From NCBI RefSeq assembly GCF_053078305.1, contig NZ_CP166879.1: 64,000 bases of DNA. One strand, 5' to 3'. The translations under genes and the position numbers were made by a program. Under the pieces are notes generated by a model. The model made no database searches, had not been told where the DNA came from, and was given only the letters and a program-made list of their open reading frames with translations. How positions within the stretch are numbered: the first letter of the stretch is position 1; each line of letters starts with the position of its first letter. Of this stretch, positions 25,507 to 26,761 are shown piece after piece.

Positions 25507-26761
25507 GTGAGTCACTGGGCTACATTCAAACAAACAGCAACAAATTTATGGGTGACCCTACGGCACGACATTCTCGCGCTGGCCGTCTTTTTAAATGGAT
25601 TGCTTATTTTTAAAACAATCTATGGTATGTCGGTCAATTTGCTTGATATTTTCCATATCAAAGCATTTTCAGAGTTGGATCTCTCCTTGCTGGCAAACGC
25701 CCCACTATTTATGCTCGGCGTCTTTCTTGTCCTGAACTCCATTGGCTTACTGTTCCGGGCAAAGCTCGCATGGGCAATCAGTATCATTTTGTTGTTGATA
25801 GCGCTAATTTACACCCTGCATTTTTATCCCTGGCTGAAATTTAGTATTGGATTTTGCATTTTTACGCTGGTGTTTTTGCTGATACTGCGCAAAGACTTCT
25901 CCCACAGTAGCGCCGCAGCCGGGACAATTTTTGCATTTATTAGTTTCACGACATTACTGTTTTACTCAACCTACGGTGCGCTTTATTTAAGCGAAGGTTT
26001 TAATCCGCGAATAGAAAGTTTGATGACCGCGTTCTATTTTTCGATAGAAACCATGTCAACCGTCGGCTATGGAGATATTGTCCCTGTTTCTGAATCAGCA
26101 CGATTGTTCACTATTTCGGTCATTATTTCCGGCATTACCGTTTTTGCCACATCTATGACCTCAATTTTTGGTCCGCTTATCCGCGGGGGATTCAACAAAC
26201 TTGTAAAAGGAAACAATCATACAATGCATCGTAAAGATGCATTTTATTGTTTGCGGACATTCGATTCTCGCCATCAATACGATCCTGCAACTGAATCAAC
26301 GCGGACAAAACGTAACGGTTATCAGCAACTTGCCTGAAGATGATATCAAGCAACTTGAGCAACGCTTAGGCGATAACGCAGATGTTATCCCCGGTGACAG
26401 TAATGACAGTTCTGTATTAAAGAAAGCGGGAATCGATCGTTGCCGGGCCATTCTGGCGCTGAGTGATAACGATGCAGATAACGCGTTTGTTGTACTCTCG
26501 GCAAAAGATATGAGCAGTGATGTCAAAACAGTTCTCGCCGTCAGTGATAGCAAAAACCTGAATAAGATTAAGATGGTACATCCGGATATCATTCTCTCAC
26601 CGCAACTGTTTGGCAGCGAAATTCTGGCGCGAGTTTTAAATGGTGAAGAGATTAATAATGATATGCTCGTTTCAATGTTGTTGAACTCCGGTCATGGCAT
26701 TTTCAGCGATAACGATGAACAAGAAACGAAAGCTGACAGTAAAGAATCGGTGCAAAAATAG
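25507..26761 (+). pseudogene. kch: kch (voltage-gated K+ channel with RCK domain) split by a +1 frameshift near 26236..26239
   Basis: Span is 1255 nt = 418 codons + 1 nt; TM/pore part in one frame (25489..26337), RCK part in the +1 frame (26237..26761); extra G after GAT. Confidence 0.7.

Follow-up and report, generated by a model that had tools for sequence, protein, structure and literature searches.

The kch locus

The window, a 64,000-nt stretch of contig NZ_CP166879.1 (assembly GCF_053078305.1) whose numbering is used throughout, is a piece of E. coli chromosome in which the trp operon, the yci genes, tonB, yciI, kch, yciY, cls, opp, adhE and nar follow one another in that order. The gene for the voltage-gated K+ channel Kch is found within the succession yciI-kch-yciY-cls, which is the same locus and synteny as that of E. 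coli Kch, and carries a +1 frameshift in its interior (Table 1). It begins with a GTG codon at 25507 and its normal stop is the TAG at 26759-26761, and these coordinates agree with the span of 418 codons plus one base that had been read from the letters alone in the first-pass annotation. The additional base was placed there at GAT-G-CAT, and alignment with the intact kch of strain Res13-Sevr-PER07-33 (NZ_CP062811) bears this out, the two sequences differing once in 1273 nt, by a G inserted at 26239 between GAT (D244) and CAT (H245). The junction reads AAAGATCATTTT in the wild type and AAAGATGCATTTT in the window, and the k-mers that tell the alleles apart are CGTAAAGATGCATTTTATTG for +G, CGTAAAGATCATTTTATTG for the wild type and ACAATGATCGTAAAG for a -1 allele. 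As also noted from the outset, the inserted G stands outside any homopolymer.

The intergenic indels that flank kch track lineage and served as haplotype markers; they are unrelated to the frameshift. Upstream, yciI (24815-25207) shows a discrepancy in start-site annotation, with a longest ORF of 130 aa, Prodigal calls of either 130 aa or 98 aa depending on the carrier, and a RefSeq annotation of 98 aa (297 nt).

Table 1. Coordinates of kch, its reading frames, the junction repeats, lineage markers and other features in the window.
Feature	Position	Strand	Remarks
kch, voltage-gated K+ channel Kch, with internal +1 frameshift	25507..26761	+	1255 nt; normal length 1254 nt
5' ORF, 276 aa	25507..26337	+	Kch residues 1-244 (TM segments and pore) plus 32-residue tail; TGA 26335-26337
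Met240 ATG, native putative internal start	26224-26226	+	residue 240 is M by numbering check
Inserted G	26239	+	GATC becomes GATGC (Dam site lost); right palindrome arm completed
3' ORF, 174 aa, from newly made ATG 26237-26239	26237..26761	+	Met, then H245 to native C-terminus
Alternative ORF, 143 aa, TTG start	26330..26761	+	Prodigal call in other carriers; overlaps stop of 5' ORF
Inner hairpin	26223..26243	+	left arm AATGCATC 26223-26230, loop GTAAA, right arm GATGCATT 26236-26243; perfect with G
Extended quasipalindrome	26211..26252	+	outer 7-bp stem AAACAAT (26211-26217) / ATTGTTT (26246-26252); inverted repeats I1, I4
12-nt deletion in L009, upstream of kch	25287-25298		CACCACCACAAG-like stretch
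A-run length difference, intergenic near kch	25349
T directly past kch stop	26763		intergenic lineage marker
Homopolymer insertions of NCCP 13963 (window equivalents)	26531, 26765, 27230, 39176, 39333, 40138, 43087
Prophage baseplate wedge genes	352-2632
Prophage tail fibre	2632-3543
Prophage tail-fibre assembly	3578-4210	-
Gin/Pin-like serine invertase	4604-5164
phrog_143 protein, 685 aa	5255-7312
Mom-like DNA modification protein	8915-9652

Reading frames and products of the split allele

The frameshift separates the transmembrane and pore part from the RCK part, as first described, leaving one ORF of 276 codons and one of 174 codons. By translation, the 5' ORF still encodes the pore selectivity filter TVGYGD, and an identical 276-aa protein matches PF07885 (Ion_trans_2). 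Past D244 this product continues out of frame for 32 residues (AFYCLRTFDSRHQYDPATESTRTKRNGYQQLA) and not for the 37 given originally, a figure that arises only when counting starts from Met240, whose frame now stops after 37 codons comprising MHRKD and the 32-aa tail. With the inserted G as its third base, an ATG arises at 26237-26239, and this ATG, correctly recognised in the first-pass annotation as lying in the RCK frame, opens the 174-codon ORF that runs to the TAG at 26759-26761. The 3' ORF spans the whole RCK/TrkA_N domain, with a 100% match to residues 5-153 of PDB entry 1ID1, and thus equals the crystallised domain minus its first four residues. The two ORFs overlap by 101 nt in different frames, and the translations show an RCK domain that is no longer joined to the pore in one polypeptide.

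It had been suggested that a free-standing RCK protein could still be made from this allele. The ORF that it would need does exist, but no Shine-Dalgarno motif was found in the 20 nt upstream of ATG 26237, and the predicted RNA fold is stabilised to -15.7 kcal/mol with the G (vs -8.8 kcal/mol for the wild type), placing this AUG and the AUG of Met240 in the two arms of a perfected 8-bp hairpin. Prodigal, moreover, prefers the TTG at 26330, from which the 143-aa ORF lacks the first beta-alpha-beta unit of the Rossmann fold. As a called protein, the 174-aa ORF is absent from a 15-billion-protein collection in either of its C-terminal variants, and the label given by PGAP to the same allele in strain NCCP 13963 is that of a 'frameshifted' pseudogene. 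Because the start has no Shine-Dalgarno motif and its AUG is buried in a stem, expression of a free RCK protein is, as far as the sequence allows it to be judged, possible but unsupported.

A quasipalindrome at the pore/RCK junction

The wild-type site at the junction between pore and RCK domain is a quasipalindrome, AATGCATC-GTAAA-GAT_CATT, in which C 26227 of the left arm is unpaired. The G inserted at 26239 is the exact complement of this C and perfects the 8-bp stem. This repeat, which the first-pass annotation had passed over, would account for the identity and the place of the extra base. Folding of the wild-type 41-mer yields the same 8-position stem, broken by the one unpaired C, together with the outer 7-bp stem (Table 1). 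The DNA fold of the 42-mer reaches -9.7 kcal/mol with the G, vs -4.4 kcal/mol without it (z = -5.1 against shuffles), and that of the inner 23-mer goes from -1.8 to -7.1 kcal/mol on insertion. A scan for local stabilisation of DNA hairpins covered each of the 3,763 distinct insertions of one base that kch allows, and the observed +G ranked second, with a ddG of -5.3 kcal/mol against a mean of -0.15 kcal/mol (sd 0.93), so that its position is not one expected by chance.

The insertion site also contains a direct repeat, with two copies of ATGCAT at a spacing of 13. As ATGCAT is its own reverse complement, readings based on direct-repeat slippage and on inverted repeats are formally indistinguishable; the complementary arms (8 bp and the outer 7-bp stem) are longer than the direct repeat (6 nt).

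Authenticity of the inserted base

The first-pass annotation had left a choice between a true frameshift allele and a sequencing error, and the assemblies strongly favour the former. Comparison of ~54 kb of the window with the complete genomes of W619, 33F4 and A16 (99.0-99.6% identity) revealed no other single-base coding indel over that length. The 1-nt indels that remain are either intergenic (12668 and 59041) or defects of the references themselves, such as that in trpD of A16, and a generally poor assembly of the window was rejected on these grounds. A query of 68 nt centred on the insertion, for which a perfect match was required, was found in one of 5,406 complete E. coli genomes, that of NCCP 13963, and the kch frame is uninterrupted in the other 5,405. 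The exact 276-aa frameshift product is nevertheless present in the 15-billion-protein collection, where it is encoded on 23 contigs that lie in differing prophage contexts. Most of the sources are independent SRA runs assembled by Logan, to which ENA and NCBI add one assembly each, and among the carrier datasets are SRR25572020, SRR12470235, SRR24258060, SRR30009725, SRR11363378, SRR29499152, SRR28287900, SRR36416842 and ERZ12815794. Other Kch proteins with the same two-ORF structure, which the first-pass annotation had said would speak against a frameshift, do occur, though only in carriers of the same mutation, and the split is not the reference architecture. No private indels were seen over 10.5 kb in the carrier assemblies, with the exception of NCCP 13963, which has two private errors. 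With 23 independent contigs, otherwise clean assemblies and a window free of any other coding indel, the extra G is almost certainly a genuine allele, as judged from the assemblies.

The assembly of NCCP 13963 (L007, NZ_CM167683.1) is noisy, with kch, cls and rssB all annotated as frameshifted within 50 kb. In its RefSeq 'complete' chromosome, short homopolymers are extended by one base at many places (TT to TTT, AA to AAA, GG to GGG; Table 1), and the added bases resemble assembly errors that were left uncorrected. In this strain the +G of kch is probably real, since near-identical clean assemblies also have it.

It is unlikely that a systematic sequencing or assembly artefact placed a G into the consensus at a hairpin or Dam (GATC) site, both in the window and in other assemblies. 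The wild-type site is indeed a Dam motif within hairpin-forming sequence, and methylated motifs are known places of systematic nanopore basecalling error; in addition, the sole complete genome with the allele is an error-prone assembly, and the evidence for +G consists of assembled consensus sequences. A systematic error, however, would be expected in far more than one of 5,406 complete genomes, and would have to leave ~54 kb of the window without another coding indel. The carrier contigs, of 20-60 kb, are without private indels and match finished genomes in all else over 4.1 kb, L013 and L012 differing there from finished wild-type genomes by the +G alone. Many independent runs also give the allele when assembled through de Bruijn graphs, as Logan contigs are, with singleton k-mers dropped (PMC12424806). 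A nanopore error at the Dam motif in particular, with a G read inside GATC in the window as in the noisy NCCP 13963 assembly, was dropped as an explanation because many independent assemblies of clean quality encode the same product.

Control frameshifts and selection

Ten alternative +1 products were built on the same haplotype and searched for in the 15-billion-protein collection, comprising each remaining base at that position (three products), T4 to T5 and A3 to A4 slippage nearby, and five other strongly hairpin-stabilising insertions. None of the ten was found in the collection, vs 23 contigs for the observed allele. The reciprocal -1 product, in which the left-arm C is lost and which a template-switch model allows, was absent from the collection as well, in a search covering one haplotype, and correction is seen in one direction only, that of the right arm from the left arm. 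The absence of the five insertions with similar hairpin gain means that a gain in hairpin stability is not by itself enough to predict occurrence, and a factor more particular to this site, or selection, may contribute.

Selection as the main cause of recurrence, such that the ATG-creating insertion gives a working two-piece Kch or a beneficial pore-only channel and other frameshifts are purged, nonetheless appears improbable. The new ATG does provide an ORF over the whole crystallised RCK domain, and in related channels, MthK for one, soluble copies of RCK are used. The T4 to T5 slippage four bases away, which would leave a nearly identical truncated pore with no ATG, is absent from the collection. 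Against these points, the new AUG has no Shine-Dalgarno motif and is sequestered in the -15.7 kcal/mol structure described above, and the allele is very rare at 1 in 5,406. The carriers examined most closely stand beside wild-type relatives that differ by the G alone, with no large clade, which is the opposite of a sweep. The literature on kch mutants points the same way, with no growth phenotype detected for a kch deletion (PMC2234077) and with unchanged expression and function of Kch after removal of its putative internal start (PMC2920069).

Consequences for Kch

Wild-type E. coli Kch (six-TM pore and C-terminal RCK domain; PDB 1ID1) is a single polypeptide, whereas the split allele, although identical to it in sequence apart from the insertion, falls into two parts, a pore with a 32-aa nonsense tail and an RCK domain without evident translation signals. 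In channels of the MthK type, a soluble RCK protein arises from an internal start (Met107 in MthK, putatively Met240 in Kch), and the split allele would likewise yield two polypeptides, a pore subunit and a free RCK protein, the latter beginning five residues past Met240. MthK, however, keeps its tethered RCK domain and makes the soluble copy in addition, whereas split kch retains no tethered RCK domain, and its native Met240 start reads into the wrong frame. The account in PMC2920069 describes the internal start of MthK and casts doubt on the role of such a start in Kch itself.

The likeliest outcome of the split is loss or deregulation of Kch at a small short-term cost, with normal channel function presumably lost. 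This reading of the cost draws on the lack of a detected deletion phenotype, on the dispensability of the internal start, and on the location in the RCK domain of the gain-of-function mutations of Kch described in PMC2234077, and a loss of small cost agrees with the very low frequency of the allele.

A more elaborate reading would make the split a recurrent, hairpin-programmed switch from single-chain Kch to a two-gene system, composed of the pore and a free RCK protein translated from the insertion-made ATG. It would entail altered channel gating and an allele that is tolerated, or transiently favoured, in some niches. Nothing was found in this analysis to support a working channel of pore and free RCK protein, and we regard the switch as a long shot. 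The kch split is not an isolated event, nor is it an architecture of two genes by design.

Shared ancestry and recoding as alternatives

Over 10.5 kb, as many as 149 SNPs separate carriers of the insertion from one another. Over the same length the window is separated by 38-76 SNPs from wild-type genomes and by 103-149 SNPs from other carriers. The +G occurs on at least four kch haplotypes, and the nearest SNPs that set these apart lie 88 bp upstream (26151) and 138 bp downstream (26377/26380) of it. Three of the carriers, namely the window (over 1273 nt) and L012 and L013 (over 4.1 kb), can each be paired with a wild-type sequence from which the G alone is missing, and no large carrier clade was seen among the carriers compared. 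Descent of all carriers as a single lineage was rejected by the distance matrix and the flanking SNPs.

A single ancient origin could still account for these haplotypes had the allele subsequently spread between lineages through homologous recombination of a short patch. E. coli recombines, the high conservation of kch would make a short imported patch hard to see, and seven carriers (L007, L008, L012, L017, L010, L014 and L011) are fairly alike across the region. The SNPs at 88 bp and 138 bp, however, imply that imported patches would be under ~230-300 bp and imported repeatedly, each haplotype fits its own wild-type relatives, and the kch of the window equals wild-type kch apart from the G, all of which makes such a spread very unlikely. 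Independent recurrence is much more economical, on the sequences compared, than the repeated import of patches <300 bp.

Programmed recoding, in which ribosomal frameshifting or transcriptional slippage restores full-length Kch, has the 101-nt overlap of the ORFs in its favour and nothing beyond, and can be set aside as next to impossible given the lack of a slippery motif at the junction, the uninterrupted gene in 5,405 of 5,406 complete genomes and the pseudogene label assigned by PGAP.

Template switching as the probable source of the allele

The +G is probably a rare but recurrent mutation of kch, for which a natural quasipalindrome would serve as a template-switch hotspot that repeatedly yields a frameshift pseudogene allele. 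According to this model, the nascent strand would fold back on itself during replication so that GAT pairs with ATC, and the polymerase would then copy the left arm in place of the true template. A G would be added opposite C 26227 of the left arm before the polymerase goes back to the template, resulting in a perfect 8-bp palindrome and a +1 frameshift past codon 244. Each such event would generate a pseudogene, with a pore-only 276-aa product carrying the 32-aa nonsense tail and an unlinked RCK frame. Since the misalignment is inherent in the sequence itself, unrelated lineages of E. coli would acquire the same mutation repeatedly.

The replication template switch is deduced from its outcome, and correction of the right arm from the left arm would fit a switch during synthesis of the + strand of the window. 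The GC skew of this strand is negative, and with the gene order of the region relative to the K-12 map this suggests that the + strand is probably the lagging strand.

Mutations of this class, associated with quasipalindromes and template switching, are reportedly the subject of work by Ripley in 1982, by Viswanathan and colleagues in 2000 and by Dutra and Lovett in 2006, involving the thyA hotspot and the lacZ QP5/QP6 constructs, as cited in PMC7202029 and PMC6357072. Quasipalindrome template switching is established for the E. coli thyA hotspot and for engineered lacZ reporters (PMC7202029, PMC6357072). Like the mutations at thyA and in lacZ QP5/QP6, the change in kch perfects a repeat with a new base specified by the opposite arm, it recurs independently, and its frameshift is not homopolymer-dependent. 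The characterised systems are further marked by a replication strand switch that depends on orientation and whose rate is raised by loss of ExoI/ExoVII, by AZT and by DNA-protein crosslinks. The thyA and lacZ mutations come from selection experiments, whereas the kch case comes from natural isolates and public assemblies and is known from sequence alone. A search of the literature for Kch M240, and for any account of a frameshift or quasipalindrome in kch, returned nothing relevant.

The kch allele is best regarded as a further instance of a mechanism of mutation already described. Most knowledge of such hotspots comes from selections in the laboratory (thyA, lacZ reporters), and kch would extend natural quasipalindrome template switching across wild E. 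coli, with a clear control contrast between an allele found on 23 contigs and eleven neighbouring or comparable frameshift products that are absent. The site could serve in population genomics as a natural marker of template-switch mutagenesis, for example under fluoroquinolone, which is a stimulator in the laboratory. For annotation, it follows that the kch frameshift ought to stay in the record as a genuine pseudogene allele instead of being 'fixed' as an error, and for channel biology, it points to natural strains with a pore-only Kch and an unlinked RCK frame.

Other features of the window

The first 9780 nt of the window are the right end of a Mu-like prophage (Table 1), which adjoins a truncated yciQ (9759-11030; 423 aa vs ~631 aa elsewhere) and on this account appears to be inserted inside yciQ. 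None of 5,426 complete E. coli genomes covers more than 61% of positions 1-25000.

The trpD gene is intact in the window and annotated as frameshifted in A16 (L006), the two sequences differing at 15518 and 15820 in the length of a G run (GGGG in the window, GGGGG in A16) and, nearby, in a 6-nt repeat unit (AAGGTA). Alignments break at 45943-46039, which holds the tyrT/tyrV tRNA-Tyr genes and rtT repeats, and the arrangement of copies differs by strain, the number of tRNA-Tyr genes and that of RtT units being either one or two in W619, Res13-Sevr and A16. Tandem repeats of the Ldr-type type I toxin occupy 62175-63184, and their copies, which carry small indels, cross-align at 95-96% and are thus a source of alignment ambiguity.
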